A stretch of 64,000 bases of DNA from Treponemataceae bacterium (GCA_963678065.2 CAXXVZ010000003.1:1888001-1952000); one strand, 5' to 3'; shown: positions 4,661 to 24,989, counted from the first letter of the stretch. Numbers and translations are program-made. Notes: generated by a model from the sequence alone, not told the origin.

Positions 4661-4733
4661 GCCGAGATAGCTCATTTGGCAGAGCGGCGCACTCGTAATG
4701 CGCAGGTGTCGGGTTCGATTCCCGATCTCGGCT
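4661..4733 (+). tRNA. tRNA-Thr(CGT), no encoded CCA; integration site (attL)
   Basis: Acceptor stem GCCGAGA/TCTCGGC, anticodon arm GCGCA-CT-CGT-AA-TGCGC, GTTCGA T loop. Confidence 0.95.
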
Positions 4734-4802
4734 AACGTAATCAATTACGAGATAACGAAATACGCGGCTACCTGAAATCAGGCGCACGCGTTCCATCTCA
4801 CA

Positions 4803-4828
4803 CTATGAGACACTTCTATGAGATAGAA
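4803..4828 (+). repeat. Tandem arm-type integrase-binding sites, left end
   Basis: CTATGAGACACTT CTATGAGATAGAA, 13-bp period; the same motif occurs at 14077-14102. Confidence 0.7.
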
Positions 4829-4842
4829 GTGAAAGGGACGCC

Positions 4843-6186
4843 ATGCGCACAGAAACGGCACAGTATTCCATTCATCGCAGAGGTGGTTTTTTCTACGTCC
4901 AATTCAAGAATCCAGAAACCCGCGAGTGGTCGACGCCGAAGTCTACTGGTACAAGTGACAGAAACACAGCTTTGCTTATCATCGCCGAATGGATGCGCGA
5001 TGGAGTACCTGTAGAAAAGACCGACACCCGCCGCAATCTTGCCGACATCTTCACTTCCGAATCTGCAATCGAGGCTGCACGCAAAGCACCACTGACGCCC
5101 GAGGAAGCTGCCCGGATCGTAGGCATCTTGCGGGATCGGGGGCTTGTCCAGGTTTCCGCAGTGCAAGTAGGACCAGGCTCCATCGATTTCACTTCATTCC
5201 TGGCTGATTTCTGGGATTATGATACATCTACATACGTCAAGGACCGGCTTTCACATGGTCAATCCATCGGGCGCCGCCACTGCAATGATATGGCATCCCG
5301 CGTCTCCGTTCACTGGAAACCTGTCTTTCAAGGCCGGAGCCTTGCGAGTATCACGAAAAAGGACATCCGTGATTTTTCGGTCATGATCGCCGGGAAGGGA
5401 CTTGCCACCGCAACGGTCAACAAAATCCTTATTACAGGAACATGTGCCTTGACCTGGGCGAAAGAAAACGACCTCATCCTCTCCGATCCTGGGGAAGGAC
5501 TTCGCAAGTTCTCCGGGGCAGGCAGACCCCGAGGCATCCTCGAAATGGACGAAGTTGCCGAGCTATTCAAGCGTGAATACTGGACTGACGATCGAACCTA
5601 TACCGCTAACATCGCCGCCGCGTTTACAGGAATGCGTGCAGGCGAACTTCTCGGGCTTAGAGTGCAAGACCTCAAGACTGACCGAATTGTCGTCACAAAC
5701 GCATGGGGAGGCGTGGATCATCTCAAGGATACGAAGAATCACGGCATCCGGCAGATCCCGTTGCCGCCCGCACTCCGCCGCGCACTTCTAGATCTTGCCG
5801 CGACCAATCCACATGGACCCGCGGGATACATTTTCTACGGAGCATTACCGGACAAACCAATGGACGAAAAGCCATTCCTCGATGATTTCAAGGCTGCATT
5901 CATCGCCATGCGCGTGAAGGGAAATGACGATCCGCAAGCCTGCGAGAAGGCCGAAGCCGAATTGAAAACACGAAACCTTCTCTTCCACAGCTGGCGACAC
6001 TTCTACAGCTCCCGCATGGCTGACAGCATCGACCTCAGGAAGCTATCAAATGCGACCGGACACAAAACACTGGAAACACTCGCTCAGTATGCGAGCCATG
6101 CGAAGAAGGATGACTTCGCCGAAATAGGAAAAGCTGTCGCAGCCCTCTTTGCGCCAGTCGTAGTCAGTACGCAAGCCGCAGGCTGA
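4843..6186 (+). CDS. int: Tyrosine recombinase/integrase
   Basis: GMRAGELLGL, TKN, FHSWRH, TGHK...QY catalytic set; located directly beside the tRNA. Confidence 0.95.
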   Translation: MRTETAQYSIHRRGGFFYVQFKNPETREWSTPKSTGTSDRNTALLIIAEWMRDGVPVEKTDTRRNLADIFTSESAIEAARKAPLTPEEAARIVGILRDRGLVQVSAVQVGPGSIDFTSFLADFWDYDTSTYVKDRLSHGQSIGRRHCNDMASRVSVHWKPVFQGRSLASITKKDIRDFSVMIAGKGLATATVNKILITGTCALTWAKENDLILSDPGEGLRKFSGAGRPRGILEMDEVAELFKREYWTDDRTYTANIAAAFTGMRAGELLGLRVQDLKTDRIVVTNAWGGVDHLKDTKNHGIRQIPLPPALRRALLDLAATNPHGPAGYIFYGALPDKPMDEKPFLDDFKAAFIAMRVKGNDDPQACEKAEAELKTRNLLFHSWRHFYSSRMADSIDLRKLSNATGHKTLETLAQYASHAKKDDFAEIGKAVAALFAPVVVSTQAAG

Positions 6187-6199
6187 GGCAGACACCAGG

Positions 6200-6592
6200 A
6201 TGAACACACTCGAAATCATCCACGACAGGCTCAGTGTCGCACTTGATCGAGCCCGCATGATCCGTGCCGATTCGGTGGGCGAGCGGGAAGCCACATTTTC
6301 TGACGTGCGGGCTGATGGACTCCGGGAAGCTATCGAGCTGATTGCCGATCCCCGCAATCATATGGACAGCTTTAGAACGCACAGGCTCACGATCGACTTG
6401 TTGCTGACATTCAACACCATACTTGAGGGGCTTGAAAAAATCCCTGAACTGAGACCCGAAAAGACCGCAGAAGTCCGGGAACTCATTAAAGGACTTATAG
6501 AGGGAATGGCTGAATTGGTACCACGGGGGCACATGGTGTCCTTAAAATCATACACAGGAGAGAATCGACATGACACAGAAGGCGATGGATGA
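6200..6592 (+). CDS. Hypothetical protein
   Basis: 130-aa ORF in the co-oriented gene chain after int. Confidence 0.6.
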   Translation: MNTLEIIHDRLSVALDRARMIRADSVGEREATFSDVRADGLREAIELIADPRNHMDSFRTHRLTIDLLLTFNTILEGLEKIPELRPEKTAEVRELIKGLIEGMAELVPRGHMVSLKSYTGENRHDTEGDG

Positions 6593-6869
6593 AATGGTTT
6601 ATGAACTGACTTTCCTTTCGGACACAGTGTACGGCTACGGGAGCATGATTCTTGAGGATCGCCGTGAACTTGCAGCTTTGTCTTTGCATACGGTATCGGA
6701 ACGCCTGGACGCTCTTGTTTCCATGTTGTCGAATGAGGACATTCCCCTTGAACTTCCTGCCGACCTTGGGGATGCAATCGAAAAGATGGCGAAGAGCGCA
6801 GGAAGATCGTACAAGGAGCAGATCATCATTTTGCTCACCGAATATGTCGCCGAGCGAAAGTCTGCATGA
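6570..6869 (+). CDS. Protein with C-terminal Arc/ribbon-helix-helix-like domain
   Basis: IPLELPADLGDAIEKMAKSAGRSYKEQIIILL resembles the Arc family; RBS AGGAG. Confidence 0.55.
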   Translation: MTQKAMDEMVYELTFLSDTVYGYGSMILEDRRELAALSLHTVSERLDALVSMLSNEDIPLELPADLGDAIEKMAKSAGRSYKEQIIILLTEYVAERKSA

Positions 6870-6928
6870 TCCGCCTTCCGGGCCGCAAAGTGCCCCGGAC
6901 AAGCATACAGGTGTTGAGGTAAAGCATC

Positions 6929-7453
6929 TTGAAACGACTTGACTATATTACTGATGGATGGAATATTGATATTATCATGAAGCATGAGAGTCCGAAACCA
7001 GTTGCCGCGAGAATAGTAAAGTATCTTGGAATGCCGCCGTCGAAGATTGCGAAGAAGTCCCCGTATATCCCCCTTTCCACCGAATCCATTATGAAGGCCA
7101 TGCGAACAGACGAGAATGAAGGCACCTTCGTCGATGGGATGGTGATAGATATTTTGCGAAGGGACTTGGGACCTCAGCGACGATACGACACAGATGGACC
7201 CAGGTTCGGGTATGTTCTGAAGCGGTCAGATTTTTGGACGGAAATGGACAGCCGACACCTTAAAGAAGCAGAAGTCTCCCGGCTTTTAGGAAGAAAACCG
7301 CGCTCGATACATTTATGGAATGACCGGACGAAAAAACCTAATGACTCACTTAGAATTACTGAAGAGGAATGGGGAAAGATTATGACATTCTGGACTGGAC
7401 AAACACAAAAAGTCAGAAAAGAAGAGGACCGAGAGGATAGTATACGAAATTAA
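6929..7453 (+). CDS. Hypothetical protein with possible C-terminal HTH (candidate repressor)
   Basis: MDSRHLKEAEVSRLLGRKPRSIHLW resembles an XRE-type HTH; TTG start with GAGG upstream. Confidence 0.45.
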   Translation: MKRLDYITDGWNIDIIMKHESPKPVAARIVKYLGMPPSKIAKKSPYIPLSTESIMKAMRTDENEGTFVDGMVIDILRRDLGPQRRYDTDGPRFGYVLKRSDFWTEMDSRHLKEAEVSRLLGRKPRSIHLWNDRTKKPNDSLRITEEEWGKIMTFWTGQTQKVRKEEDREDSIRN

Positions 7454-7652
7454 GCGCACTCTAGAAGGCGCTTAGGCATTTTATGCCCGCAGATGCGGGA
7501 ACGGTGACACTGGGACTATGGCAACCCGGAAGGGTTAGTGACAGACCTCCCAGAAGGACACGGATCAAACCGTCTGTGTCGGGTCGAAAGGCTCTCCGAA
7601 TGGTCCCCTCACTTGTATGAGTAGAGGGGAAAACCATTTTCGGGGGCCACAA

Positions 7653-7868
7653 ATGGCACCATTCACAATTTCTCGGCAGTTTTATTCAAAGAAAGACCTT
7701 ATCGAAATCACCGGACAATCGCTTAGCACTATCGACCGCGGACTGCGAAATGGGAAAATCCCTTTCGTGAAAATCCCTGGCGGTAAAAATGTCCTCATTC
7801 CCGCTTCATTCATCGAAGCCCTTGAGGTTCGGGCCAGAGCACTCCCGACCGAGGGGGCTGCCGTATGA
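7653..7868 (+). CDS. AlpA/HTH_17 excisionase-like DNA-binding protein
   Basis: FYSKKDLIEITGQSLSTIDRGLRNGKIPFVKI. Confidence 0.8.
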   Translation: MAPFTISRQFYSKKDLIEITGQSLSTIDRGLRNGKIPFVKIPGGKNVLIPASFIEALEVRARALPTEGAAV

Positions 7869-8050
7869 CCGCCGCAGATCGCACTATCGTGCACAGGGAA
7901 CTTGATCGCGCTTTCGACTCCGGATTGCCCTTCTATGGCGACGTTCTTTTTAAGCTCCAGATTCAAGGCGGAAAACTCCATCGGATCGAAACAACGGTTT
8001 CCCGTGCCGTTCTCGCCGAAACATTACGGATCGAAGGCGGCACTAAATGA
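7865..8050 (+). CDS. Small hypothetical protein
   Basis: ATGA-coupled to xis; 61 aa. Confidence 0.6.
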   Translation: MTAADRTIVHRELDRAFDSGLPFYGDVLFKLQIQGGKLHRIETTVSRAVLAETLRIEGGTK

Positions 8051-8283
8051 TGCCCGTCGGCAAAAAGCCCTGCCCGAGGCATACGGACAGGGCTTCATGC
8101 ATTGAATCGGAACTGGATTGCATTTCTATTTTCGACAAAATACAAGAATCTGTCAATCTCATACCCATGGCCTCTTCCAAGTTCAATGAATATGGCGACC
8201 TCTTGACAGGATGCCAGCCCCGCGGCGATGTCCGCGCCTTACATGCAGTTGACAACCGCATGACGGTGAGAGGCCACGAATGA
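8047..8283 (+). CDS. Small hypothetical protein
   Basis: Its ends overlap both neighbouring genes; weak coding evidence. Confidence 0.35.
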   Translation: MMPVGKKPCPRHTDRASCIESELDCISIFDKIQESVNLIPMASSKFNEYGDLLTGCQPRGDVRALHAVDNRMTVRGHE

Positions 8284-8588
8284 AGGCCGCACAGATTGTC
8301 CGCGCAGCTCTCGAAGCCCCGCCCGGAATGCTCCTCGCTGTTGACGCAAACGGTCCCTTCACGATCCGGGAATCGCAATTCCATAACGGGCCGGACGTTG
8401 TGGCCTATCAACAGAATGAACTTGCGGACTTGATTCGAGCTTTTTTTGGCCCTGACATATTCGAATACCCTGAAGCCGACGAAGCTCTCAAAGAATTTTT
8501 TTTATCAGATAGCTCCGCGAGGATCGCTGAACGCCGCCGGCGAGGGATTTCGTGGGACCGGGTTCCTCGAACCGGAGGCCGTTCATGA
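8280..8588 (+). CDS. Hypothetical protein
   Basis: RBS GAGAGG; ATGA-coupled to the rep gene. Confidence 0.6.
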   Translation: MKAAQIVRAALEAPPGMLLAVDANGPFTIRESQFHNGPDVVAYQQNELADLIRAFFGPDIFEYPEADEALKEFFLSDSSARIAERRRRGISWDRVPRTGGRS

Positions 8589-9511
8589 CCACAGGGCCCG
8601 TTGCCCGCATTCCCCTGTCTATCCTCGAAGACGCCAGCCTTCTCAAAGCCGAGGCATGGACTTTCATCGCACTCTACAGCTTCGCCGATGATCGTGGAGA
8701 ATGTTGGCCATCTCTAGATCGGATCGCTTCACGTGCACACCTCACTCGGCGATGTGTCGTAGATTCCCTTCGGAATCTTGAAAGCAAAAAACTCATCGAG
8801 AGGACCAGACGTTTCGAAAGGAATTCACGGGAACCAACTTCAACTCGTTACCGTGTTTTATGTAGGGAATCAGGTTCCCTAGGTAGTGAATCCAGTTCCC
8901 TACAGGTAGGGAACACCATTCCCTATGTAGGGAATGGCATGCACCTAGGTAGGGAACCAGGTTCCCCCGAACTAATCAATGAACTAAAGAAAGACACTCT
9001 GTCTTCGCCGTTGTCCTCGAAATCGAAGAAGGCAGTGAAGGAAAAGCCGGAGGCTCTATCACCTGACCAACTTGCCGCCTACCACGCTGCGGAATCCCGA
9101 TTTCAGGATACTGCAAAGACCGAGGGAGTCACGTGGAATCATCCACGACAAGGGAAAGCGCTTCGGTCCCTTGTCGAAGCCTACACAGACCGCCTTGCCT
9201 CCCTGCCGGGAATCGTTGAAACATTCCTGACACTCCGGGGCGGGAAAGAAACATTCTGGACAAAGCAGCCGCCGACCGCCTCCGCACTTCTTGCCCTTCT
9301 CGACCGAGTAGAAACCGAGGCCGCAAAGCGTCGACCACCTGCCCCGGATCGGAAACCGCTCCCAACTTGCCCAGTCTGTAGATCGACGTACCCTGTCGGA
9401 TCGCAGATCTGCCCTCGATGTGGATTCTTCCTGGATGACGCTAAAGGTCCGCGCGCTGAAACAGCCATCGCCGCTCACCGCACCCGTATCACGGAGAGGG
9501 GCACGGCATGA
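8585..9511 (+). CDS. Phage-type replication initiator (N-terminal wHTH/HTH_36, C-terminal Zn ribbon)
   Basis: LYSFADDRGECWPSLDRIASRAHLTRRCVVDSLRNLESKKLI; internal iterons; CPVC...CPRC. Confidence 0.8.
   Translation: MTTGPVARIPLSILEDASLLKAEAWTFIALYSFADDRGECWPSLDRIASRAHLTRRCVVDSLRNLESKKLIERTRRFERNSREPTSTRYRVLCRESGSLGSESSSLQVGNTIPYVGNGMHLGREPGSPELINELKKDTLSSPLSSKSKKAVKEKPEALSPDQLAAYHAAESRFQDTAKTEGVTWNHPRQGKALRSLVEAYTDRLASLPGIVETFLTLRGGKETFWTKQPPTASALLALLDRVETEAAKRRPPAPDRKPLPTCPVCRSTYPVGSQICPRCGFFLDDAKGPRAETAIAAHRTRITERGTA
8862..8966 (+). repeat. Five palindromic iterons (putative replication origin)
   Basis: Five imperfect TAGGGAA-N5-TTCCCTA copies at about 21-23 bp spacing, followed by A-rich GAACTAATCAATGAACTAAAGAAAG. 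Confidence 0.8.
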
Positions 9512-10836
9512 ACAGCCATGAAAGCGCTCTACTCGCCGCCATTCTCGATCGCCCCAGTCTCATTGACTCCCTCGAAATCACACCAGGGCTCTTCCAAGAC
9601 TCTGACGCCCGCGCCATCCTCTCCGCGGTCGAATCGTGCCGTAACAATCAGATTGCTTCGGACCTCATCGCCATAGGCGACGCTCTCGGTATTGCAGGGC
9701 GTTCCGAAGCCGTGCAGACAGCCGCAGGCCTATCAGGGACAGGAATGCCGGTCTCCGCTCCATACCATACCGAACAGCTCAGGGAAGCCGCACGGCGCCG
9801 AGGGCTCGAAGCCGTCCTACGTGACGGCATTTCTGCACTAGCCGATCTTTCTCGTCCGACACGCGAAGTCCTCGAATCCATCGAATCAGGCGCGCTTGAA
9901 GCATTTCGGCAAGCCCCTGAGACTGAGCCACGGAGAACGGCCGACCTCATTCCTGACTGGCTTCGCGCCGTAGAGGGCCGTAAGCGTGACCGTGAGGCTG
10001 GGAGGGTGGACGGAATTGGGACCGGAATCTCGGCGCTCGATGGCATTCTAGGGCCGATGCGCCCTGGATCGGTGAACATCATTGCCGGCCGACCAGGATC
10101 AGGGAAGACCGCACTTTCTCTCGGAATCGCCCTGCATGCCGCGGTTGATGAAGGGCTCCCTTCTGCCGTTTTTAGTCTTGAGATGACGAGGGCCGAACAG
10201 CTCGACCGGATCGCCGCTGCTCGGTCCCGGTTTACTCTTGGAAAAATCCGTGGCGGATACCTTCAAGACTATGACTGGACGGACCTCCTCGCTGTCGGGA
10301 ATCGTCTTGCTTCAGCACCTCTCGCCATCTTCGACGGCCCACATGGACTCGGAACGCTTCGGAGCCGGATTCGCCGCGAGACTGCACGAGGATGCAGACT
10401 GGTAATCGTGGACTATCTCGGCCTCCTTGACTTGGGTGTAGGAGGAAGAATCCCGCGGTGGGAGCGCATCGGCGAAGTATCCCGCGACCTCAAGCTTCTC
10501 GCCCTCAATCTTCGGATCGTGATCGTCCTCGCTGTCCAATTGAACCGGGAGGCCGAGGGGAAACCTCCGACCCTCGCCGACCTCCGTGACTCAGGGAGTA
10601 TCGAACAGGACGCGGACAGCGTTCTTCTCCTCCATGTGACAGGCGAAGGCGATCCGCGTCCAGTTCAAGCGAACATTGCGAAAAACAGACACGGGCCGAC
10701 CGGGAAAACCGAACTGTCATTCGATGGGCCACATGTCCGGTTCATTGACCCCGCCTCGCCGATACCAACCGACACCCTCGACCTCGAAACGCCAAACCAG
10801 CCAGGACAACACCCACATAGGGAGGCTAGACGATGA
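9508..10836 (+). CDS. DnaB-like replicative helicase
   Basis: AGRPGSGKT, FSLEM, IVDYL, QLNR, LADLRDSGSIEQDAD, KNRHGPTG. Confidence 0.95.
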   Translation: MNSHESALLAAILDRPSLIDSLEITPGLFQDSDARAILSAVESCRNNQIASDLIAIGDALGIAGRSEAVQTAAGLSGTGMPVSAPYHTEQLREAARRRGLEAVLRDGISALADLSRPTREVLESIESGALEAFRQAPETEPRRTADLIPDWLRAVEGRKRDREAGRVDGIGTGISALDGILGPMRPGSVNIIAGRPGSGKTALSLGIALHAAVDEGLPSAVFSLEMTRAEQLDRIAAARSRFTLGKIRGGYLQDYDWTDLLAVGNRLASAPLAIFDGPHGLGTLRSRIRRETARGCRLVIVDYLGLLDLGVGGRIPRWERIGEVSRDLKLLALNLRIVIVLAVQLNREAEGKPPTLADLRDSGSIEQDADSVLLLHVTGEGDPRPVQANIAKNRHGPTGKTELSFDGPHVRFIDPASPIPTDTLDLETPNQPGQHPHREARR

Positions 10837-11270
10837 ATTGCGGTACTTTTGATACATGTTCAGCCCCACTTTGCCCTCTCGATCCTACCAGCCTGGAAAA
10901 TTCGGTATGGTTTCCGGGAGAGGCGATATGCACCCGACAGGGAACAGAGTTCGCCAAAAAACAGCGGAGGCTCATGAGAAAAGGAATCAAGCACGATACA
11001 TGCTTCACTTTTACAATGATTGAGAGGCTATGGTCCATTTCAGTCGGTACGAGCGGTATCAACCCCGAGTACGAGAAAGCGGAAGTTGAACCTACATGGA
11101 TGAAGAATCATCCGCCAAAGCCCAAAGTGTCAAATGAGATTACCAAACGCCGCAGACAGACCATGGCAAACTTGCTCCTATCGAAAAAGAAGGCGGGAAT
11201 TATCGAGGCTACAGCACCTACCACCCCTTCGGACGTACTTTCTGTGCCTGGACCCGTCGGAGGAGCCTGA
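10833..11270 (+). CDS. Cys-rich hypothetical protein
   Basis: CGTFDTCSAPLCPLD...IC; ATGA-coupled to dnaB; RBS GGAGG. Confidence 0.65.
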   Translation: MNCGTFDTCSAPLCPLDPTSLENSVWFPGEAICTRQGTEFAKKQRRLMRKGIKHDTCFTFTMIERLWSISVGTSGINPEYEKAEVEPTWMKNHPPKPKVSNEITKRRRQTMANLLLSKKKAGIIEATAPTTPSDVLSVPGPVGGA

Positions 11271-11375
11271 AAGCTATATCTCATCACAAAAGGGAGAGGC
11301 TGTCTGACGACTGCCTTGTCCCTCGATTTACTGCGAAGGAACAGTCGATGCTGTTAATGGCATGAAGGAGAGACC

Positions 11376-12017
11376 ATGAACGATTTAATAGACGATAATG
11401 AGCTTTTAGCGCAGCCGCTATCTCGGTCTGAACAGCACTTCGTGGCTGAATACTGCATCAATGGGTACAACGCTACAAAGGCATATCAGTCTGCCCACCC
11501 AAAAGCTTCGCCCGAGACAGCCCGGTCGAATGGATACAGGATGCTGACAAAAGCTCACATCGTGAGAGCCATTGATGACTTTTGTATTCGGTCGGTGGAT
11601 GGCAGGCAAGCGATTCTGAAGAAAAGGATAGTCGATATTCTGGAGGTCCAGGCGTTCTACAAGATTACCGACATAATGGACATAAAGACTGGCCGGATAA
11701 AGATGACCAATGAGGAACTTGAGGCCGCAGGACTCACCGCAGTGATTGAATCGGTCAACGAGAAGAATACCAAGGATGCCAAGAGCATCGAATACCGGTT
11801 CTCCGACAGACTTGCAGCCATAGATATGCTGTGCCGAATTGTCGGTCTCTATGATACCAAACTCACAAGGGGAGGGCTGGGAGAGTCCGAGAATGTTGTC
11901 GGTGTCATTCTTGGAGTCGGAAAGATTCCAATCGAGGAATGGAACGCACGGGGGAGAGCAAAATCAGACGAACTGGCGAGTCAAGTATTGGGGAAATCCG
12001 GACTCCTCAGACCGTAA
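11376..12017 (+). CDS. terS: Terminase small subunit
   Basis: LSRSEQHFVAEYCINGYNATKAYQSA...ARSNGYRMLTKAHI and DRLAAIDMLCRIVGLY match Terminase_2-type TerS; RBS AAGGAG. Confidence 0.8.
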   Translation: MNDLIDDNELLAQPLSRSEQHFVAEYCINGYNATKAYQSAHPKASPETARSNGYRMLTKAHIVRAIDDFCIRSVDGRQAILKKRIVDILEVQAFYKITDIMDIKTGRIKMTNEELEAAGLTAVIESVNEKNTKDAKSIEYRFSDRLAAIDMLCRIVGLYDTKLTRGGLGESENVVGVILGVGKIPIEEWNARGRAKSDELASQVLGKSGLLRP

Positions 12018-12029
12018 AGAGGGACAGCC

Positions 12030-12227
12030 ATGAAAGACCACCGATCACTACAGCCGGGAGGACCAAGTCGAGCGGAAATACTGCGAATGCAGATCATCGA
12101 CGAACTTGCCAATACCCTACCGGTTGCCTTCCTGGTGATACCCGAGACCCGGCTTGACCGCCTTGAGGATAATCTTGACCGGATAATCGGTGCAGCGTTC
12201 CGCGCTAAGGGAACCGCACGCCAGTAA
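12030..12227 (+). CDS. Small hypothetical protein
   Basis: 65 aa with RBS GAGGGA, followed by a terminator. Confidence 0.5.
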   Translation: MKDHRSLQPGGPSRAEILRMQIIDELANTLPVAFLVIPETRLDRLEDNLDRIIGAAFRAKGTARQ

Positions 12228-12247
12228 TAGCTATGCATGAGAGTACA

Positions 12248-12275
12248 AGCTCCGGATCGCTTCGGGGCTTTTTAT
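12248..12275 (+). terminator. Terminator of the terS operon
   Basis: AGCTCCGGA-TCGC-TTCGGGGCT followed by TTTTATT. Confidence 0.7.
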
Positions 12276-12554
12276 TATCATTCCGGATTTCATTAATAAC
12301 AGAATGCCGTGCGTTTTTTCCGTTTCACTCGGACGTGGTTTACTACCAAGAAGGGAACCGGCGCAATTTCGTCCCTGAATAAAAGCCCTCCCAATCGACG
12401 TATAACGGAAGTAAAACACACAGATCCATATCATATCGCATGCGCTCCGAATACAGACTAAAAACGAGTGATCACACTCTGGCTGCAAGTTGAATAATGC
12501 TCTGTTTTCCGGAACTGACCTGATGTATTGTTTACTCATGTGAGGATAGACCAC

Positions 12555-13601
12555 ATGAAACGAATCATTGTAATTCTCTTTGCTTTGTTCTGCACGTTGC
12601 CTTTGGTTGCGCAAGAATGGTTCTTCGACCTGTGCAAGACAGGAAAACCAGAACAAGTTATAGCCGCACTGAAGGCTGGCGAGAAGGTTGATGCCCGAGG
12701 TGGCTACGGCTGGACTCCACTCATGTATGCTGCTGAATCCAACACACATGAGGTGGTCGCCGCGCTTCTGAAGGCCGGCGCAAAGATAGATGATCGGTCA
12801 GTGACCGGCATGACTTCACTTATGTACGCTGCTATGAGCAACAAACCCGAGGTGATCACCGTTCTTCTACGAGCCGGTGCAAATGTGGATGACAGGAGCA
12901 ACAATGGCGGGACCACCCTCATGATGGCTGCCTCATCCAACCATAACCCCGATGTGATAGCGGCACTGCTAAAGGCTGGCGCGAGAGTAGATGACCGAGA
13001 CGATGGCGGCAGAACCTCTCTCGTGAGGGCTGTTTGGATGAATACTTCCGAGATGGTTATGGCGCTGGTAAAAGCCGGTGCAAAGCTTGACAACCGAGAT
13101 GATGACGGCATGACACCACTCAGGTGGGCTTTCACCCCGAACGCGAACCCTGAGAATCTCACTGTTCTTCTGAAGGCTGGCGCGAGGGTAGATGATCGGG
13201 ACGATGATGGCATGACTCCGCTCATGTGGGCTGTTGTGATAAGCAATAAACCCGAGGTGGTCGCGGCGCTTCTGAAAGCCGGTGCGAGTGTGAAAGATCG
13301 TGATGAAAATGGCTGGACTCCACTCATGTATGCTGCTGAATACAATCATAACCCCGAAGTGATTACTGCGCTGTTGAATGCTGGGGCGAATGTGGATGAC
13401 AGAAAAGAGGATGGCGTTACCCCTCTCATGATTGCTTCCGCCAATACGAAGAACCCCGACGTCATCACGACGCTCCTGAATGCTGGGGCCAATGGGAAGG
13501 CAAAGGACAAAGGAGGCAAGACAGCCTTTGATTGGGCGAGGGGCAATGAAAAGCTCAAAGGAACCGACGCATACTGGGCGCTGAACAATTCCCGATACTG
13601 A
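12555..13601 (+). CDS. Secreted ankyrin-repeat protein (satellite cargo)
   Basis: Signal peptide MKRIIVILFALFCTLPLVA; about nine G.TPLM.A...N.PEV...LLKAGA.VDDRD repeats. Confidence 0.9.
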   Translation: MKRIIVILFALFCTLPLVAQEWFFDLCKTGKPEQVIAALKAGEKVDARGGYGWTPLMYAAESNTHEVVAALLKAGAKIDDRSVTGMTSLMYAAMSNKPEVITVLLRAGANVDDRSNNGGTTLMMAASSNHNPDVIAALLKAGARVDDRDDGGRTSLVRAVWMNTSEMVMALVKAGAKLDNRDDDGMTPLRWAFTPNANPENLTVLLKAGARVDDRDDDGMTPLMWAVVISNKPEVVAALLKAGASVKDRDENGWTPLMYAAEYNHNPEVITALLNAGANVDDRKEDGVTPLMIASANTKNPDVITTLLNAGANGKAKDKGGKTAFDWARGNEKLKGTDAYWALNNSRY

Positions 13602-14076
13602 GGCCCACGGCCTTTCTTGATAGTATCTACATATCGGCTCGCGCCTCCATTCAACGCGCTATAGGTTGCATGCTGAACGCAAGGCCGCGCGTATGAAAAA
13701 CGTCTGATTTACTGCGACGGAACTGCCACAACAATGAAAAGAATTGAGGTTCGAGTATGAAACGACAGACAGGAAGGCAATGTCCTTACATCATAAAAAA
13801 GAGTTATCCGACTCATATGTGCGGACGATGGAATGGCGCTGTCCTGACAGAATAGCCTTGTGTTTTTTCCGTTCCGCCCCGGACGTGGTTTACTACCAGG
13901 AAGGCAATCGCTGAGATTCCACCCTGTAATCTACAAGGCGGGTTTGCCCCATAGCGAAGTTATTCCGCCCCTATTTGGGCATTCTACGGGATACATGGCC
14001 GTCTTTGTCTGCCTGAATCAATCCTGAGGCGATAGCGCGAATCCATATAATACGTGGTTATACGACGCCGTTTTTA

Positions 14077-14102
14077 CTATGAGATAGAACTATGAGATAG
14101 AA
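14077..14102 (+). repeat. Tandem arm-type integrase-binding sites, right end
   Basis: Two perfect copies of CTATGAGATAGAA. Confidence 0.7.
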
Positions 14103-14216
14103 AGCAACACGATATAAACTTTCTTGACATAATACAGTATGCAATAATATTGACAGACATCGATTTAGGGTTTAGGTTAATACGTAACGACATAGTGTGA
14201 AATGTTAATTTTCAGT

Positions 14217-14258
14217 CTCGTAATGCGCAGGTGTCGGGTTCGATTCCCGATCTCGGCT
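14217..14258 (+). repeat. attR, duplicated 3' part of tRNA-Thr
   Basis: Identical to 4692-4733. Confidence 0.95.
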
Positions 14259-14422: not shown

Positions 14423-15355
14423 TCATCCGCAGATCGTGGATCTACCTCCATCGTCCGCCCCGCGCAACAGGGAAAAAAACGGCACAGTGTACCGGCGCGT
14501 GCGAATCATGTCGAAGAAAATTTCTACCACTTCAGGATCAAACTGTCTTCCGCTGCAGCGGCTGATTTCCGCCACTATGTCCGAAGGCAGCATGGCCTTG
14601 CGGTAAGGTCGGTTGTTTATCATCGCGTCGATGCTGTCGGCGAGAGCGAGGATCCTACTCAGGAAGGGAATCTCATTTCCCCGCAGGCCGGGGGGATATC
14701 CGGCGCCATCCCAGCGCTCGTGGTGGGCTACGACGAAGTCCGCGAGCTCCGAGATGCCGCAGATTGACTGTATCAGCTTGTACCCGATCGCCGGGTGACG
14801 CCTGACCTCCTCCCACTCCTTGGGGCCGAGCGAGGTTGGCTTGAATATAATCTCATCGCTGATGCCTAGCTTCCCGACATCGTGCAGTATGCCCAGAGCG
14901 TTGAGGATCAACAGATCCCTCTGGGGCAGCCCCATCATCTTGCCCAAGTCCACACAAGCTTCGCTCACGCGGAGGGAGTGCGAGAGAATCGCGGGGAAAC
15001 GGCCCTGCAGGGCCTTGGTATAGGCGTAGACCGAATACATGTCGTCGAGAACTTCGAGCGTACACTCTTTTATGTCGAGCAGGCTCACCACCTTTGTGCA
15101 ATAACCCAGGAGGGCCACATCGCCCAAAGGCCCCGAGCCCCCAGTGTTAGTCAGGGCCTCCATGATCGCGTTCATCTTGATGATATCGACCTCGCGCTTT
15201 ATCCGAGCGGCGAGCCTATCGACGCGGGCATCGGTGCCCTGTATCGTCTTCTTGGGCTGGCAAACCACGTCCTCGCTGTTCGCTCCGCCGGGTTGCTTTG
15301 CGTCAATACACATGGCAGCTTCCTTCTCGCAATACAAAAAATGCCGTCGCATCAT
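14423..15355 (-). CDS. HD-GYP domain c-di-GMP phosphodiesterase
   Basis: HSLRV, LHDVGK, HHERWDGAGYP, ADSIDAM, RPYR. Confidence 0.9.
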   Translation of the reverse strand: MMRRHFLYCEKEAAMCIDAKQPGGANSEDVVCQPKKTIQGTDARVDRLAARIKREVDIIKMNAIMEALTNTGGSGPLGDVALLGYCTKVVSLLDIKECTLEVLDDMYSVYAYTKALQGRFPAILSHSLRVSEACVDLGKMMGLPQRDLLILNALGILHDVGKLGISDEIIFKPTSLGPKEWEEVRRHPAIGYKLIQSICGISELADFVVAHHERWDGAGYPPGLRGNEIPFLSRILALADSIDAMINNRPYRKAMLPSDIVAEISRCSGRQFDPEVVEIFFDMIRTRRYTVPFFSLLRGADDGGRSTICG

Positions 15356-15358
15356 TCC

Positions 15359-18040
15359 TCACTGGCCGGCGCATCCGCCAGCGCCGGTTTCCGACGTATC
15401 GTCGAAAGGCCTATACTCGAGGTCGGCCCCATCGACATATCCTCCATTCTGGGGAATATTGACCACTCTCGTTATGTAGGCGACCTTCTCGTCTGCGCTC
15501 TTCTTTGTGATACGGACTGTGTAAGGGCCGACCTTCAGGGCGGAGAAAACATAGTACCCATCGTAAGCCGAGCGGACCGATCCGATCACCGCGCCGGAAC
15601 TGTCAAGCAGCTCGACGCGGGCGCCCGCCAACTCACGCCTCACGCCCCCCTCCACGGCCCATATCGTGCCGGAGACCTCCCCCGTGATCCAAACGGGGAA
15701 ATCCAGCCGCGCGGCCGTGCCCGGATGGAGCACGCAGCTCAGGCCCTTGTCGGCAGGGACGAGAAGAAGATCCTCGAGCGTCGTCTCGTCGACCTCCACG
15801 TTGAGCGGCAGATTTGCGGACAAACCGCGTAAAAACGCGTTGCCCTTCGCGTCCGTCAACGACTCGGCGCCGCTATCGTTCACGATAAATCCGACGTCCT
15901 TGAGAGCATCTTCACCTTTATCCCATTTTCTGTTGTAGTTCGCGTCGAGGTAGACGCGGGCCGCGATGGAGCCTTGCCCCGCTCCGCTCCGCGAATCCAC
16001 AGCGATGGCTCCGCTCTTCGAATCGAAGGCGATACTCGTCGAAATCGATAAACTTACCGAAAACGCGTTCCGTGTCGTCCAGGTTCCCGTGAGGCCTAGG
16101 CGCAAGGGGCTCACATCCCGGTAGAGCGAGATGGACGCGGAGAGAAGATCGGAGGAAAGCGAATACGTGGCTGCTCCGGAGACTTTAACCGACAAGAATG
16201 GGCCGGCTTCCGCCGAAAAGGATAGGCTCTCGATCGCCGCTTCGGGATAGATGTCGTAGCCGCAGGAGGCTTCCAAATCCACTTCCCCAATCCGCGCGTT
16301 GGCCGTCGTCGATCCATCTGCGTAAAGTACCTGCGATGAAGGCCCATAATAATGACGGGAAAGGTTTAGTTCATTTCGGAGACGGATGGCCCTATACGAG
16401 TTATAGTTTCGCAAGGCAAAAAGATCGTATCGGCAACCTTCCCTGTACAGCGTCGATATCCAGGAGGAAGAGAGGGAAGCATAGAATTTATCCATTTTCA
16501 AACTTAATCCGTCGACGCGCAGAACGCTCCGCGTTTGGTAGGGCGGATCGCTCGATGAGGCGTTCGCCTTTTCCCATTTATCGTCGTAATAGGTACCGCG
16601 CCATGAGAGCCCAAGGCCAAGGAGTTGGGTGCGCAAGCCGAGGTCGCCGGCGAACCCTGAATGGCGCGCATCGTAGGCTGCCGATACGTCGAACTGGAGG
16701 CGGCTGAAATATCCAGCCATTCCCGCTTGGACATGGAGGTTACGACCGTCGGGAAAGACACCAGAGAGCGCCGACGACGAGAACGTGAGGTATTTCGAAA
16801 GCCCGTAGGTTGTCTGGAGGGCGAACTGTCCCCCCTCTTCCTCGGCCGTGGCTGAAGCCCGGTAGGATAAGGTACCCGGCGGCGTCATGTTCGATCCCAC
16901 GTTGTAAATATGTTCCTCGGTCTTCTTCTGACCGAGAGGGCCATGGAACTCGAGTCTGAGCAAGTTGGTCCCGAATACGAGGGGGATATCGGCGAAGGTA
17001 TAGGTACCGCTCGCGTCCGCCTTCCTAAAGTCGAGATAGGAATCGTTCCGGTAGAGCTCCACGTCCCAACCTGAGAGAAGAGGCCCCGAAAGCGTCTGGA
17101 GATCGAAGTAGGAGGGGCTCGTGAGAGCATAGTTCCCGACCGAAGCGCCATAACCCGAAGCCGAGGCGCCCAAGAGGGAGGGAAGAACTGCCGATACCTT
17201 GCCTATGGAAAACTCCGTTCCGCCCAGGGAACCGAAAAGCTTGCCGTCGGGGTCCACTCTGCGGAGCACCCCATAAAGGCTGGTGGGAACGAAGTTCGAG
17301 CCGTCCAGCTTGCCCGCGACGGAGAGTGAGCCGCTCATCCACAGGAGGTCGCCCGTCAGGAGGGCGCTGTAGGTCGGTCCACTCAGGCTGACGCCATTGC
17401 CGCTGGATGAAGAATACAGCGAAGCCCCGACCGAAAAATCGAGGTTGAAGCCATCGAGAAAGCGGTAGGGGTTCGCCGCCCGAGGAAAATATGATCGTTC
17501 CTCGACACCATAGCGCGTGGTCTTGCCGCCCCGCTGCTCGCGCTCGAGACGGAGCTGGATAGGGAGTTTCGTCCGCGGCAGGAGGACGACGGCAGCGTCG
17601 TAGCGGTCGGCCTGAATGGGGATGCCGAACCATTCGGAGAGGAGGGAAACCTCAACATAGATGTCGTCGGGGTGGGCCACGATGCGCGCCTCATCGTAGA
17701 GGCCGCGCTCACCCGCAACCCGCACGCTCCGCGAAACCATGTCGAGGGAAAATGCATGCGCTTCGTCCCAGAGGTAGCCCGAGGCTGTTCCTCGCCCGGG
17801 ATCGACGTCGAGACCACACTCGATAAGGCGGCAGACCGTCCCTAGCGGAATAAAGAGCCCCCGCTCCGTCACATAGGTTTCCAACTCTTGGGAGAGCAAC
17901 TCGCGATCGACGTTTAGGGAGCAGAGAAGGAGTTCGTCCTCGTTGGGCGCGATGAGTGTAAAACCCAGTGCTTGGGCCCCGATGCGCGGAAGAGAGCAGA
18001 GAAGAACCAATGCATAAACGGCCACACACCATCGCCTCAT
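15359..18040 (-). CDS. Fimbrial usher-like outer-membrane protein
   Basis: 893 aa with signal peptide; VELYRND...GTYTFADIPLVFGTN...GPLGQ plug-like motif; beta-rich; C-terminal Ig/carboxypeptidase-regulatory-like domains; operon context. Confidence 0.7.
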   Translation of the reverse strand: MRRWCVAVYALVLLCSLPRIGAQALGFTLIAPNEDELLLCSLNVDRELLSQELETYVTERGLFIPLGTVCRLIECGLDVDPGRGTASGYLWDEAHAFSLDMVSRSVRVAGERGLYDEARIVAHPDDIYVEVSLLSEWFGIPIQADRYDAAVVLLPRTKLPIQLRLEREQRGGKTTRYGVEERSYFPRAANPYRFLDGFNLDFSVGASLYSSSSGNGVSLSGPTYSALLTGDLLWMSGSLSVAGKLDGSNFVPTSLYGVLRRVDPDGKLFGSLGGTEFSIGKVSAVLPSLLGASASGYGASVGNYALTSPSYFDLQTLSGPLLSGWDVELYRNDSYLDFRKADASGTYTFADIPLVFGTNLLRLEFHGPLGQKKTEEHIYNVGSNMTPPGTLSYRASATAEEEGGQFALQTTYGLSKYLTFSSSALSGVFPDGRNLHVQAGMAGYFSRLQFDVSAAYDARHSGFAGDLGLRTQLLGLGLSWRGTYYDDKWEKANASSSDPPYQTRSVLRVDGLSLKMDKFYASLSSSWISTLYREGCRYDLFALRNYNSYRAIRLRNELNLSRHYYGPSSQVLYADGSTTANARIGEVDLEASCGYDIYPEAAIESLSFSAEAGPFLSVKVSGAATYSLSSDLLSASISLYRDVSPLRLGLTGTWTTRNAFSVSLSISTSIAFDSKSGAIAVDSRSGAGQGSIAARVYLDANYNRKWDKGEDALKDVGFIVNDSGAESLTDAKGNAFLRGLSANLPLNVEVDETTLEDLLLVPADKGLSCVLHPGTAARLDFPVWITGEVSGTIWAVEGGVRRELAGARVELLDSSGAVIGSVRSAYDGYYVFSALKVGPYTVRITKKSADEKVAYITRVVNIPQNGGYVDGADLEYRPFDDTSETGAGGCAGQ

Positions 18041-18925
18041 GCTTTTTCAGCCTCATACACACTGTCTTACCCGACGCCCTCACTCAGGCATTAATTACCT
18101 ACTCATTCGAAACTCAAGTATTTTATCCATCAGATAAGTTCTACACATATTCTTGTTCTTTTATGGTATGGGAATTTCCGCGCTCGCAAGGACAGGAATG
18201 ACTTTCCCCTTAGCGTTGTAGGTATCCAGATAGCGAAGCCGAAGCGTCCCCCCATGAAAAGTATCAACAAGCTCGGGGGGCAGGCTTATCGGAAAGTTTA
18301 CAATTCTACGCTTGTTGGTCGCATATACAGTGAGCCCTTTCTTTTTTTCTAAAATAATGGGAACTTGTCCTGGCTGTATGTACTCGACCACCAAGTCTCC
18401 ATACAGCGACTGATTACCAGCGCGTTCAATCACAAAACTGAGTGTTCTGTTTTCCGGATTTAATCCAGGAGCCAATGTAATACCAACTATAGAAGCGGTC
18501 ACGGCAGTGGCCCCAGACCTGATGATAACGGGGACTGCTATGCCATATATGGGGGTTAATTTGATACGTAGTCCTTCTTCATCTTTAGAAGAAGCTGCGT
18601 CGCTCGCTGTGTCCGGTATAACGCTCACGACGAGATTCGAGCGGTACTCCCCATCAAGGAGGTCCGCAGGACGCAAAAACTGAAGCCTTACAATCTGCTG
18701 CATTTTGGCCCCAAGCGCAATCCTTTTAGGAGTTACCCGGAGAAATTGATCCGCAAAACAATCATCAGGCCTCGCAGAGTCTGCTCTTACCAGTTCACCC
18801 GTCTCCGACATTCTAAAGTTTACGAAACTGACTGAATATGTTTTTTGGCTCGTGCTAGGATTTATAATGATAAGCTCGGCAATACGACTGCGTCCTTCAA
18901 TCACTAGTCTAGTAGTCTGTAACAT

Positions 18926-19585
18926 CTAAATCTTTTCATCGATAATTGGATATAGACGTCTCAGTTTCGTTCTTGCGTCATGCGTTGTGAATTGCCAATC
19001 AACGCCGCGCTGATTTTTATTCCTGCTCACATACCAGCTCGCAAGTTCAGAATTAAGATCATCGAGACAATCGATTTTCCTTTTTGCCAAACACTGCCGA
19101 CCAAGCGCAGAGAGTTCAATTTCGGCAATATTCAGCCAACTTCCGTGCTTTGGTGTGTAGTGGATTTCAAGTCGCTGGGCCAGCTCGAACGCTTTCCGTG
19201 GCGGAAATGAGTCGTATAACGATGAAACACCATGGGTATTCAAGTTATCCATTACGAGAACAATCTTTTCTGCTGTTGGATATTCAACCATGAGGAGTTG
19301 TTCGATATAGTGTGCCCAATCAATCCTGGTCCGATGTTCTCGAGCATCAGTGTAGCGCCAGCCCCTCAATGGTTCGGTAAAGAGAAAAATACTACAGGTC
19401 CCTTTACGGACATATTCGGAATCTTGTCGCTCCGGTTTTCCCTTTCTCATAGCGATATGTTGCCGTCGATCAGCCAATAGCTGGATCGGCTTCTCATCCA
19501 TGCATACCACTGGACGATTGACGTTATAAGGCCTGCTATATACTTCCAGAACATCTTCCATTGCGGCAACGAAACGACCATTGGG
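18926..19585 (-). pseudogene. IS630 transposase DDE part
   Basis: [30 protein letters not shown]. Confidence 0.9.
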
Positions 19586-19649
19586 TGGACCTACCCCAAA
19601 CCAGTGGAGCATGAGTTAAGCCTCTCCGAGAATAAGGAGAGGAGAGGGT

Positions 19650-19902
19650 ATGGAAGACAAAAGAAGGAAGTACGCGGCAGAGTTCAAGAAAGAAGCACTT
19701 GAACACTTGGAACGGTCAGGCAGGAGTGCCCGGAACGTGGCCAAAGACTTGGGAATTGATCCTGGACTATTGTGCCGGTGGCGACGGGAGAGTCAGGAAA
19801 TACACAAACAAGCATTTACCGGACAAGGGAATGCACGTGATCAGGAAATGACCAGGCTGAAAAAGGAAAATGATGAACTTCGTGAGGCGAATGCAATACT
19901 AA
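19650..19902 (+). pseudogene. IS3 OrfA (5' part)
   Basis: RRKYAAEFKKEAL HTH...ENDELREANAILK; continues as KAVAIF after 21269. Confidence 0.9.
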
Positions 19903-19909
19903 AAGATGA

Positions 19910-20145
19910 TATGTTTCCCCTGGCGGTACAACGATCGTGGTAGGCTGGGTTCGACGGAACCCGGGAGCCGGCGGCAGGCAGTACGCGCTTTGTGGGGTAT
20001 GACCCCGGCTAAAAGATTATGCCCAGGCCGGTCGTCGAAAATCAGGGTGCAGGACGATGCTGCGGCAACGCCACTGCGAATAGAAGAATGTAGTACCACG
20101 TTGTATCGCTCAAAGACTTCCGGCTCCGATCTTTTTCCCGGGAGG
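19910..20145 (+). ncRNA. Candidate IS110 bridge/seek RNA
   Basis: About 250-nt structured non-coding left end with an internal loop carrying GCTTT and CTAAAA that match the insertion target. Confidence 0.6.
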
Positions 20146-20151
20146 CTGCGC

Positions 20152-21255
20152 ATGGGGAAGGAAACAGGGCGTTTTATTGGCATCGACCTTTCGAAGAGGA
20201 CCTACGAGGCGGTTGCCATCGATGGAAAGACCGAATCAATCCAGCGGTGGAATGGCAAGCTCGATATTCGAGGCCGCCGCAGCCTTGCGGAAAGGGTTCG
20301 ACCAGGCGACACCATCGCGATGGAAGCTGGTACCTCCTCATTCCAGATAGCGAAGGAACTCATGGAGCACCCCGACATACAGGTCCTTGTCCTGAACGCG
20401 GCTGACCTGGCGGTGATCCATAAGTCGCTCAAGAAGTCGGACCGTGAGGACGCGCTCAAGCTCGCGCGACTTGTGCAAAAGTTCAATGCTGACGAATTGC
20501 CGACAGTGCCAGTGCCCTCGGATGAAGAGATGGATCGTCGGGCACTTTCGTCCCATGAAGACCGCTTTCGCAGGGATAGAACTCGCCTTATAAACCGTCT
20601 TCATGCGGTGTTTCTCCGATGTGGCATTCCTGACCATACCAAGGCCCAGCTTAAGAAGGCAGCCACGAGGGAACGGCTCATCGAAACCGAACTTGCCGGC
20701 TTCAGCAAGACGGAGGCCATTAACCTCCATCACATGATCTCGGAATATGAGCAGATCCTCGCCGGGTTGGTCGAAGAGATCGGGGCTTCGGTGATGAAGG
20801 GCGGGGAGTCTGCGCACATCCTCATGTCGCTCCCTGGCTTTGGCATCAAGACGACGATGGCCATCCTGGCATACGCGGGAGACATGCGCCGCTTTAGCGG
20901 ACCAGCCCAGTTGGTCAACTATGTTGGGTTGTCGCCACGGCTTCACGAATCGGGAGAACTTGAACGCAAGGGCTCAATCACGAAGCGAGGCAATGCGCAT
21001 CTTCGGGGCCTGCTTGTCCAGAGCGCCTGGGGACTTATTCGCAGTAAATGCTCAAACCCGCTCAAGTCCCACTATGAGGCAATGATCTCCAGAGGGAAAG
21101 CGCCTTCTATCGCGGTCGTCGCGACCGCCCGGAAGCTGCTCGAGATGGTCTATATTTTGCTCACACGAGGGGAACGCTACCGGTACACGGATGACATGAT
21201 ATTTGCTCTCAAGCTCAAGAGGTCAGGATTGGCAATTCTCGGAGCCGGAGGTTGA
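20152..21255 (+). CDS. IS110-family DEDD recombinase
   Basis: IGIDLSK, IAMEAG, KSDREDA; C-terminal SLPGFG, YVGLSPRLHESG, ITKRGNAHLR; RBS GGGAGG before ATG 20152. Confidence 0.95.
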   Translation: MGKETGRFIGIDLSKRTYEAVAIDGKTESIQRWNGKLDIRGRRSLAERVRPGDTIAMEAGTSSFQIAKELMEHPDIQVLVLNAADLAVIHKSLKKSDREDALKLARLVQKFNADELPTVPVPSDEEMDRRALSSHEDRFRRDRTRLINRLHAVFLRCGIPDHTKAQLKKAATRERLIETELAGFSKTEAINLHHMISEYEQILAGLVEEIGASVMKGGESAHILMSLPGFGIKTTMAILAYAGDMRRFSGPAQLVNYVGLSPRLHESGELERKGSITKRGNAHLRGLLVQSAWGLIRSKCSNPLKSHYEAMISRGKAPSIAVVATARKLLEMVYILLTRGERYRYTDDMIFALKLKRSGLAILGAGG

Positions 21256-21269
21256 CAGGAAACATAGAA

Positions 21270-22176: not shown

Positions 22177-22206
22177 CTACCTGTCCATTCGGTCGGGGCA
22201 AGTCCA

Positions 22207-22703: not shown

Positions 22704-22914
22704 ACCGCTACCCTCCTAATGGTACACCATTTAGAGGATAGCTCAAATATCATTTATTATAAACTATTAGATGTTACAGTGTACTAGTAGGTGCGACAGT
22801 GAGATCGGGGATACTCGAAACTTGATTTTCATTCTGTCCTTGTACGTTATTTAGTATGATAGACCCCATAAAAAAGGACAGCATCAACGCTCTCTTCCAC
22901 ATCCTCTTCTCCCC

Positions 22915-24955: not shown

Positions 24956-24989
24956 CAATCGTCTTCCTTTCCCCAGATCGGAAGTATAC

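Follow-up and report, generated by a model that had tools for sequence, protein, structure and literature searches.

Layout and gene content of an element in tRNA-Thr

The window analyzed here, meaning the whole 64,000-nucleotide stretch from the Treponemataceae bacterium assembly GCA_963678065.2 (CAXXVZ010000003.1:1888001-1952000), contains near its left end an element of ~9.5 kb (nt. 4692-14258) integrated in a tRNA-Thr(CGT) gene. The element is bounded by a perfect 42-bp direct repeat (nt. 4692-4733 and 14217-14258) that equals the 3′ 42 nt of the tRNA gene (nt. 4661-4733), and full copies of this repeat occur in the window, as in the genome, solely as this att pair. These coordinates, together with the tRNA predicted by ARAGORN, agree with the boundaries given in a preliminary description of this DNA; the excised circle would measure 9,525 bp.

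Between the att repeats lie 14 open reading frames (ORFs), with all recognized genes on the forward strand, in the order integrase, orf2, Arc/ribbon-helix-helix (RHH)-like gene, orf4, xis-like gene, orf6, two small ORFs, initiator, DnaB, orf11, terminase small subunit (TerS), orf13, and an ankyrin-repeat gene. This is about eight small ORFs more than were listed previously, the Arc/RHH-like gene among them, and 4-bp gene overlaps run from xis to orf11. The features are as follows (TerL, terminase large subunit; HTH, helix-turn-helix; L-numbers denote fetched loci, and G000 the host genome):

4661-4733, +, tRNA-Thr(CGT), the integration target, left intact (ARAGORN)
4692-4733, +, attL core, 42 bp, tRNA 3′ end (100% direct repeat)
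4804-4823, +, left TATGAGA motif pair, likely integrase arm-binding sites (motif match)
4843-6186, +, tyrosine integrase, 447 aa, R..K..HxxR..H..Y motifs (PF00589 E 2.9e-14; phrog_1 E 3.5e-36)
6200-6592, +, orf2, right after int in related islands (phmmer matches L190, L184, L183, L107; scored in L112, L114)
6570-6869, +, Arc/RHH-like small regulator (phrog_582 E 0.002, RHH_5 E 0.03; weak)
6929-7453, +, orf4, 174 aa, possible C-terminal HTH regulator (ESM Atlas HTH leads <0.9 only)
7653-7868, +, excisionase-like HTH, xis/activator (HTH_17 E 0.001, TIGR01764 E 5e-4, phrog_66; all below curated cut-offs)
7865-8050, +, orf6, 61 aa, helix plus beta-hairpin, DUF2292/YezD-like (alignment; structure model pLDDT 83)
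8047-8588, +, two small coupled ORFs, 78 and 102 aa (ORF calls; the second weakly matches the tRNA-Lys element of the same genome)
8585-9511, +, lambda-O-like replication initiator, 308 aa (HTH_36 E 4e-8; phrog_270 "replication initiation protein" E 6e-15; phrog_391)
8859-8966, no strand, iteron array inside the initiator gene, likely origin (repeat families D5, D7, I1, I3)
9508-10836, +, full-length DnaB helicase, 442 aa, Walker and DnaB motifs (DnaB_C E 9e-59; weak DnaB N-domain)
10833-11270, +, orf11, Cys-rich family protein, likely metal-binding (alignments)
11325-11342, +, 18-bp motif (second copy 13706-13723; no others genome-wide)
11376-12017, +, TerS (Terminase_2), 213 aa, no TerL (PF03592 55.4 bits vs cut-off 26.1; phrog_51 E 6.5e-17)
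12030-12227, +, orf13, 65 aa, family gene (49% match, E 5e-9, in the att-bounded island L114)
12247-12270, +, intrinsic terminator-like hairpin, end of core operon (10-pair stem plus T tract; consensus match only)
12299-12360, +, imperfect repeat of 64 bp on either side of the cargo (84%; other copy 13847-13910; unique in the genome)
12555-13601, +, ankyrin-repeat cargo protein, hydrophobic N-terminus, possible signal peptide by eye (Ank_2 E 6e-77)
14078-14097, +, right TATGAGA motif pair, likely integrase arm-binding sites (motif match)
14217-14258, +, attR core, 42 bp (100% direct repeat)

Family-profile searches of the 14 ORFs returned no match to TerL, portal, capsid, tail, or lysis families, and no holin, head-tail, primase, or relaxase/conjugation gene was recognized among them; seven of the ORFs have no family match of any kind, so an unrecognized structural gene is possible. 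The reverse strand carries no recognized gene, hence there is no divergent stl/str pair in the element. Pseudogenes are absent from the core, the integrase has its catalytic motifs, and the G+C content of the element is 0.48-0.60 versus 0.59 for the contig. Profile matches and repeat analysis bear out most of the earlier inventory (integrase, iteron-bearing initiator, DnaB, lone TerS, and one cargo gene, with intact core genes and no capsid, portal, TerL, tail, or lysis genes). The "AlpA-like" excisionase is retained in part: it shows weak matches to excisionase models (HTH_17, TIGR01764, phrog_66), but no AlpA model, nor any MerR or Stl-type model, matched among the element ORFs. We regard the element as an intact, site-specifically integrated island and as likely a satellite of the phage-inducible chromosomal island (PICI)-like kind, belonging to Treponema-related spirochaetes.

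Regarding the host, the preliminary suggestion of a spirochaete is upheld by GroEL, which is 84% identical to that of a Treponema sp. genome and 77% to that of the same-order genome G125, compared to 63% for a Gallionella; on these identities, the host belongs to a Treponema-related order of spirochaetes. GroEL was chosen as marker because FlaA (PF04620) gave no match in the host genome, the same-order genomes G111 and G125 having it (three copies) and 0/14 controls; the host is possibly a non-flagellated spirochaete. The genus-level genome set consists of the host genome only.

The TATGAGA pair lies inside each att end and recurs at both ends of the host's tRNA-Lys and tRNA-Met elements, and these pairs are likely the arm-binding sites of the integrase. 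A similar motif pair beside tRNA-Leu(taa) (G000:C4:148626) suggests a further island or a scar.

Packaging and replication genes and their phage relatives

The preliminary description had named the identity of nt. 11376-12017 as a point on which it could fail, and the product is indeed a TerS, with PF03592 above its cut-off and phrog_51 in agreement. The protein is full length, keeps its N-terminal DNA-binding region, is the sole PF03592 match in the host genome, and clusters with P0002 (full-length, 71% identical) and P0008. Its gene is flanked by orf11 and orf13, whose nearest located homologues lie in small islands (L115, L183, and L184 for orf11; L114 for orf13), and downstream of it come orf13, the terminator-like hairpin, and the cargo gene, with no TerL stub, whereas its phage homologues directly precede TerL. 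Hairpins of this type are, in total, not above their count in shuffled sequence. This setting between two family genes, followed by terminator and cargo, would set the element apart from a truncated phage. Orf11 itself occurs in 9 of 301 genomes of the order, mostly within att-bounded islands; its predicted fold (pLDDT 73) has no clear match in the PDB (best Z 3.2) or among viral models, nor any in the ESM Atlas.

Replication would be served by the lambda-O-like initiator, whose gene contains about five part-palindromic repeats of 19-21 bp in one cluster, a likely replication origin, and by the DnaB helicase. The initiator is 55% identical to that of the host's tRNA-Lys element, where the iteron array is longer by ~66 bp. 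The DnaB is 46.5% identical to that of phage L044 versus 35.7% to the host DnaB, L044 being a 47-kb phage that carries an initiator, DnaB and, further on, TerS-TerL; a DnaB scan of IMG/VR returned generic phage DnaBs (28-40% identity). An initiator plus DnaB in place of a primase-helicase had been singled out as unusual, a view that is not supported, given that DnaB-type helicases are found among tycheposon modules (10.1101/2020.12.28.424599).

Four public runs were compared as assembled contigs, which break at the att repeat, and no attP or attB junction is listed for them. A groundwater run contains pieces of the element at 97-99% identity, as single low-depth contigs, and 14 of the 17 coding differences listed for this strain are synonymous versus ~0.30 expected (P 1e-5): 6/6 in int, 2/2 in the initiator, 3/3 in DnaB, 3/4 in terS, and 0/2 in orf2 and orf11. 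Sequencing errors would not favor third positions. The groundwater contigs leave the ankyrin cargo uncovered, at a depth too low for this to mean anything. Contig depth of the element versus its flanks (29.7 vs 29.3/34.6; 32.7 vs 25.5/41.2) gives no sign of amplification, depth not being copy number.

A number of findings weigh against a satellite, and some of these favor a deleted prophage, in which a spirochaete phage of the lambdoid type would have lost its whole terL-to-attR part while its early genes and terS were kept. Among all fetched loci with a TerS match at HMM E<=1e-25 (36 distinct), 29 are TerL-linked, three are too short, and four have no detected TerL; the TerS clade is mainly phage, with TerL adjoining in 29 of the 33 loci with informative flanks, and one of the four is the phage L097, in which portal and capsid genes are present. 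TerL is likewise next in 15 of 16 IMG/VR loci with TerS homologues, the remaining one ending near a contig edge. The lone TerS copies (window, G111, L061, and L161, the last on a long branch) are rejected as a single clade (p-AU 1.5e-8), a polyphyly that fits repeated capture and, equally, repeated deletion. The order of initiator, DnaB, and TerS is phage-type, as in L044, and 68 other family genomes yielded no match to the initiator. Orf11 precedes TerL and portal genes in L188, and phages L068, L138, and L160 have the YezD-like gene as well. One public-run contig lacks 34 bp of int (nt. 5720-5753, with 4-bp microhomology), the synonymous excess in terS alone is not significant (P 0.07), and purifying selection is also known for domesticated prophages. 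The assembly offers no competent helper phage; the anatomy and the family are observed, and each step of the cycle proposed below is inferred.

We nonetheless consider a deleted prophage unlikely. The fetched regions of the 25-row clade to which the window integrase belongs show no TerL or portal; what follows terS is a family gene and then a terminator, with no TerL remnant; and the DnaB-terS interval holds one gene, compared to the long run of small genes in phages L043 and L044. There are no core pseudogenes, and 14 more islands combine the backbone with other modules. The preliminary description had named as refuting a gene block that in relatives always continues into TerL, portal, or capsid genes; what we found is a backbone recurring in small att-bounded islands without TerL or portal. 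The lone TerS also recurs, in the complete islands L161 (12.1 kb, tRNA-Met) and G111 and in a termite-gut contig (L061), and L116 has a lambda-Nu1-type TerS (phrog_57) in place of the Terminase_2 type. For an island of this kind, the replication and packaging parts would derive from phages, more than once, because the TerS clade is mainly phage, the lone copies are polyphyletic, and the DnaB is nearest to that of a 47-kb phage.

The island family

A search with the window integrase (E<=1e-30) matched 24 of 69 family genomes, and the 35 regions fetched cover all 37 non-self integrase matches, with 19 extending at least 10 kb. None of these regions matched TerL or portal in a limited reference set of spirochaete-phage proteins, which other TerL types could escape, and one has a capsid gene. 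Most begin at a tRNA, 14 of the 35 at tRNA-Thr, and none of these 14 carries TerL or portal. The integrase tree places the window integrase in a 25-row clade of tRNA-island integrases (SH-aLRT 99), outside which the integrases of prophages L024, L026, and L031 fall. The integrase of the resident tRNA-Gly prophage clusters with that of the host's small tRNA-Val island, and one island integrase (L185) with a prophage integrase; phages and islands thus share parts, a point in favor of deletion. Searches of IMG/VR for relatives of this integrase, and of the initiator of the window element, found none.

With further loci found via TerS, orf11, and the islands of the host genome, the family comprises 15 elements bounded by tRNA-derived repeats, including that of the window (14 tabulated plus G111, with a 46-bp repeat and 13.5 kb); in L107, L112, and L118 the att repeats are imperfect. 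Fourteen of the 15 measure 6.9-13.5 kb, the other being the tRNA-Lys element (26 kb), which is filled with insertion sequences (IS), and none has a TerL or portal match in the same reference set. All have a related integrase, and among the 14 tabulated, the YezD-like gene is present in 13, orf2 in six, orf11 in four, and orf13 in two. Among the fetched loci, orf2 and orf13 were met in islands alone; phages, too, carry orf11 and the YezD-like gene. Replication modules in the same 14 include an AAA_25 helicase (seven), a DUF3631 protein (one), and the O-like initiator plus DnaB (two, both in the host genome, with initiators 55% identical and DnaBs just 30%). A Terminase_2 TerS is present in three of the 15 (window, L161, and G111), and two carry their own capsid gene (the tRNA-Val island, P22-like; L110, protease plus HK97 capsid).

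The family likely swaps replication and packaging modules on a shared backbone of integrase and small genes. The new satellite family proposed in the preliminary description survives as recurring att-bounded islands with a common integrase and backbone; its supposed signature of initiator, DnaB, and TerS does not, given that AAA_25 is commoner and TerS is confined to 3/15. A broader reading, which we put forward tentatively as possible, is that spirochaetes host a large undescribed satellite family whose integrase-xis-YezD backbone has repeatedly taken up parts for replication and packaging from local phages. Its members would form a continuum from lone TerS (two types) and own capsid to TerS with a tape-measure-like gene (G111) and TerS plus TerL with a tape-measure-like gene (L159), in which the window element would be the version with a phage O/DnaB origin, and the tape-measure carriers would reshape the tails of their helpers, not the heads.

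The same survey bears on two further alternatives. The element could be a mobile anti-phage island that excises and replicates, with a TerS whose main role is that of a decoy blocking the terminase of infecting phages, and with passive movement. The 12 of 15 family members without a recognizable Terminase_2 TerS indicate that it is unnecessary for spread, and related elements such as the tRNA-Lys element carry defense-like cargo. The window TerS, however, is full length and retains its N-terminal DNA-binding region, redirection of packaging by a satellite-encoded TerS is well established (PMC6092414), and interference and redirection can coexist; we hold the decoy explanation to be quite unlikely. 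The element could also be independent of phages, an integrative element resembling cargo-carrying tycheposons or mobilized by an integrative and conjugative element, transferred by vesicles or conjugation, with terS incidental. Consistent with this, L124, L183, and L184 carry cargo and no recognizable packaging gene, and tycheposons have cargo-carrying and PICI-like types mixed on one backbone (10.1101/2020.12.28.424599). We find it very unlikely, given that the 14 ORFs contain no relaxase or conjugation family and that the repeated independent capture of packaging and head genes (Terminase_2 TerS, Nu1-type TerS, P22-like capsid, HK97 protease plus capsid, TerS plus TerL, and tape-measure-like genes) points to selection for entry into virions.

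Several members deserve individual mention. L110 (G001:C64) is a 7.0-kb tRNA-Thr island with a prohead protease and HK97-type capsid gene and no terminase. The G111 island (L023:4310-17841; 13.5 kb, tRNA-Gly) has a split initiator, a lone TerS, a 762-aa tape-measure-like gene, and a head-morphogenesis-like gene. The tRNA-Ala island L159 (G642:C32), for which the right att was not found, combines an AAA helicase with TerS and TerL and a 935-aa gene 28% like the tape-measure-like gene of G111, with no portal or capsid seen. In the host itself, the att-bounded tRNA-Val island (G000:C3:2340595-2347486, L017; 6.9 kb) encodes an integrase, xis, YezD-like protein, and DUF3631 replication protein, with a P22-like major capsid gene in the opposite orientation, and is a candidate capsid-encoding satellite. 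The 26-kb tRNA-Lys element (G000:C3:2357079-2383395, L009) is a sister of the window element with a frameshift-split integrase (60%) and no TerS, swollen by IS, a group II intron-like reverse transcriptase, and an AAA-ATPase plus HNH pair resembling a defense system. The tRNA-Met island (G000:C5:1117930-1160517; 42 kb) is att-bounded with the same arm motifs and has two 1,850-aa repeat (RHS-like) proteins and a type II secretion/pilin-like cluster, all named by eye.

The small early genes are less uniform. The xis-like gene has 40% homologues in the tRNA-Lys element and L127. The Arc/RHH-like gene, a candidate repressor, has no homologue among the fetched loci, and orf4 gave no family match in profile searches. 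HMM matches to the YezD-like family of orf6 account for the 13 of 14 tabulated elements noted above, one member matching DUF2292 (E 0.04); the orf6 fold (pLDDT 83) has no clear match in the PDB (best Z 4.1) or among viral models.

Proposed cycle and relation to known satellites

In the cycle we propose for such a satellite, a helper phage would switch on the xis-led operon, which the RHH or orf4 protein may repress, and Int and Xis would excise the 9,525-bp circle. The O-like initiator would bind its internal iterons and recruit the island's own DnaB, a pairing that may be likened to gp18/gp12 of phage P22. The island TerS would then bind an island site and recruit the TerL of the helper, which would fill helper capsids by the headful mechanism, probably with concatemers and in heads of full size, because no capsid-size gene is recognized, and Int would insert the DNA at tRNA-Thr of the next host. 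The 18-bp and 64-bp repeat pairs around the terS-ankyrin region are candidates for pac sites or for traces of cargo exchange; the 64-bp repeats were also tried as integron attC sites and rejected, with just two copies genome-wide. The replication and packaging modules would likely come from spirochaete phages and be interchangeable across the family.

The sole TerL of the host assembly belongs to an IS-laden 73-kb prophage in tRNA-Gly (G000:C3:806147-879164, L013-L016), which has TerS-like, TerL, portal, scaffold, capsid, adaptor, and Dit genes and large cargo, and is decayed. No tail tube or tape measure gene is recognizable between its head and Dit genes, and a YezD-like ORF lies near its right end (nt. 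878064-878267, reverse strand). This prophage is probably defective, and the helper would therefore come from outside. Phages L056 and L029 pair members of the TerS clade with TerLs 61% and 45% identical to the resident one; TerLs of further types accompany other clade members, which precludes naming a partner TerL.

The PICI core comprises an integrase, a regulator (alpA/merR/stl homologue), a primase-replicase, capsid morphogenesis genes, and TerS, with a median size of 9.5 kb, which is the size of the element, and variants without primase-replicase exist (Type B#var03; PMC10085698). Of these components, the window element has integrase and TerS, offers as regulator weak matches below cut-offs (HTH_17 E 0.001; Arc/RHH E 0.002), and has no recognized primase-replicase or capsid morphogenesis gene; tail, holin, portal, and head-tail genes, which PICIs lack, are likewise absent from the 14 ORFs. 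With two core components present, one weakly so and two missing, we describe the element as PICI-like and do not file it as a PICI, though it may work like one.

Gram-negative PICIs are transcribed unidirectionally rightward with no divergent repressor pair, have an origin 3′ of the initiator gene with two iteron sets around an AT-rich stretch, occupy att sites never used by prophages, and carry genes exclusive to the island family (PMC6092414). The one-strand layout and the missing stl/str pair, both called unusual at first, are therefore the Gram-negative norm. Like these PICIs (EcCICFT073 type), the element has a tRNA-type att site, an integrase, a small HTH activator/excisionase, an iteron-based replication module, TerS with cargo after it, unidirectional genes, no structural or lysis genes, and a size of ~9.5 kb; it differs in having no AlpA match, primase-replicase, or capsid-morphogenesis gene, in an origin placed inside a separate O-like initiator gene with DnaB alongside, in its Terminase_2 (pac-type) TerS, and in its spirochaete host. 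With SaPIs and other Gram-positive PICIs it shares a lone TerS of the Terminase_2 family, which would be expected to redirect the TerL of a pac-type helper, as well as size and a 3′ accessory gene, whereas it has no divergent stl/str, no pri-rep, no recognized cpmAB-like genes, and an int co-directional with xis. Capsid-forming PICIs (cf-PICIs) encode capsid, portal, TerL, and head-tail proteins of their own, none of which is recognized in the element.

In design, the nearest parallel, by analogy, is with PICI-like tycheposons (10.1101/2020.12.28.424599), which share with the family a tRNA-targeted tyrosine integrase, interchangeable replication modules, DnaB-type helicases, a terS or capsid gene, and cargo-only relatives on the same backbone. 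Going by their descriptions, the element is set apart by an unrelated host phylum, an O-like initiator with iterons, and its YezD-like and orf11 markers. Temperate spirochaete phages (L044, L068, and prophages of G087 and G125) resemble the element in the O-like initiator plus DnaB, the TerS clade, and the xis and YezD-like pair, and differ from it in size (30-75 kb), in having TerL, portal, capsid, and tail genes, and in integrases outside the island's clade.

Phage satellites have been mapped mostly in Proteobacteria and Firmicutes. Our literature search (titles and abstract starts, with subscription journals largely outside coverage) found no publication on spirochaete phage satellites, and a whole-word search found no paper combining a PICI satellite with a replication initiator and DnaB helicase. 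The accessible text of a 2024 survey reports 38 Treponema prophage regions of 12.4-75.1 kb without mention of "satellite" or "PICI" (PMC11144348), and "spirochaet" is absent from the main text, as accessible, of the SatelliteFinder paper (PMC10085698). The element would represent a new host lineage and variant of PICI-like satellites, with the phage-type origin as its special trait and a satellite lifestyle likely. If such islands do ride in phage particles, they would provide a gene-transfer route for defense and other cargo among Treponema-related bacteria, and small candidate vectors for a bacterial group that is difficult to manipulate. The several packaging modules on one backbone offer a natural series for how satellites arise from phage parts, and a copy with a phage-type initiator and DnaB implies that primase-based detectors may miss such satellites.

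The ankyrin cargo also occurs in islands L115 and L124. Its PADLOC matches (PDC-M72A/Ankyrin) were attributed to the ankyrin repeats, and Legionella effector models fell far below cut-off, being repeat-driven. A promoter scan of the element gave matches at chance level. The host has a CRISPR array of ~146 spacers (G000:C3:1140502-1152900), none of the 146 matching the element beyond the 15-nt chance level; two match the host chromosome, at C5:1110620-1110653 (34/34, in an ABC transporter gene) and C3:1814424-1814456 (32/33). Right of attR, nt. 14423-26249 of the window hold an HD-domain gene, an 893-aa usher-like and a chaperone-like gene (by eye), and several IS, and contig depth there exceeds that left of the tRNA in three public runs.

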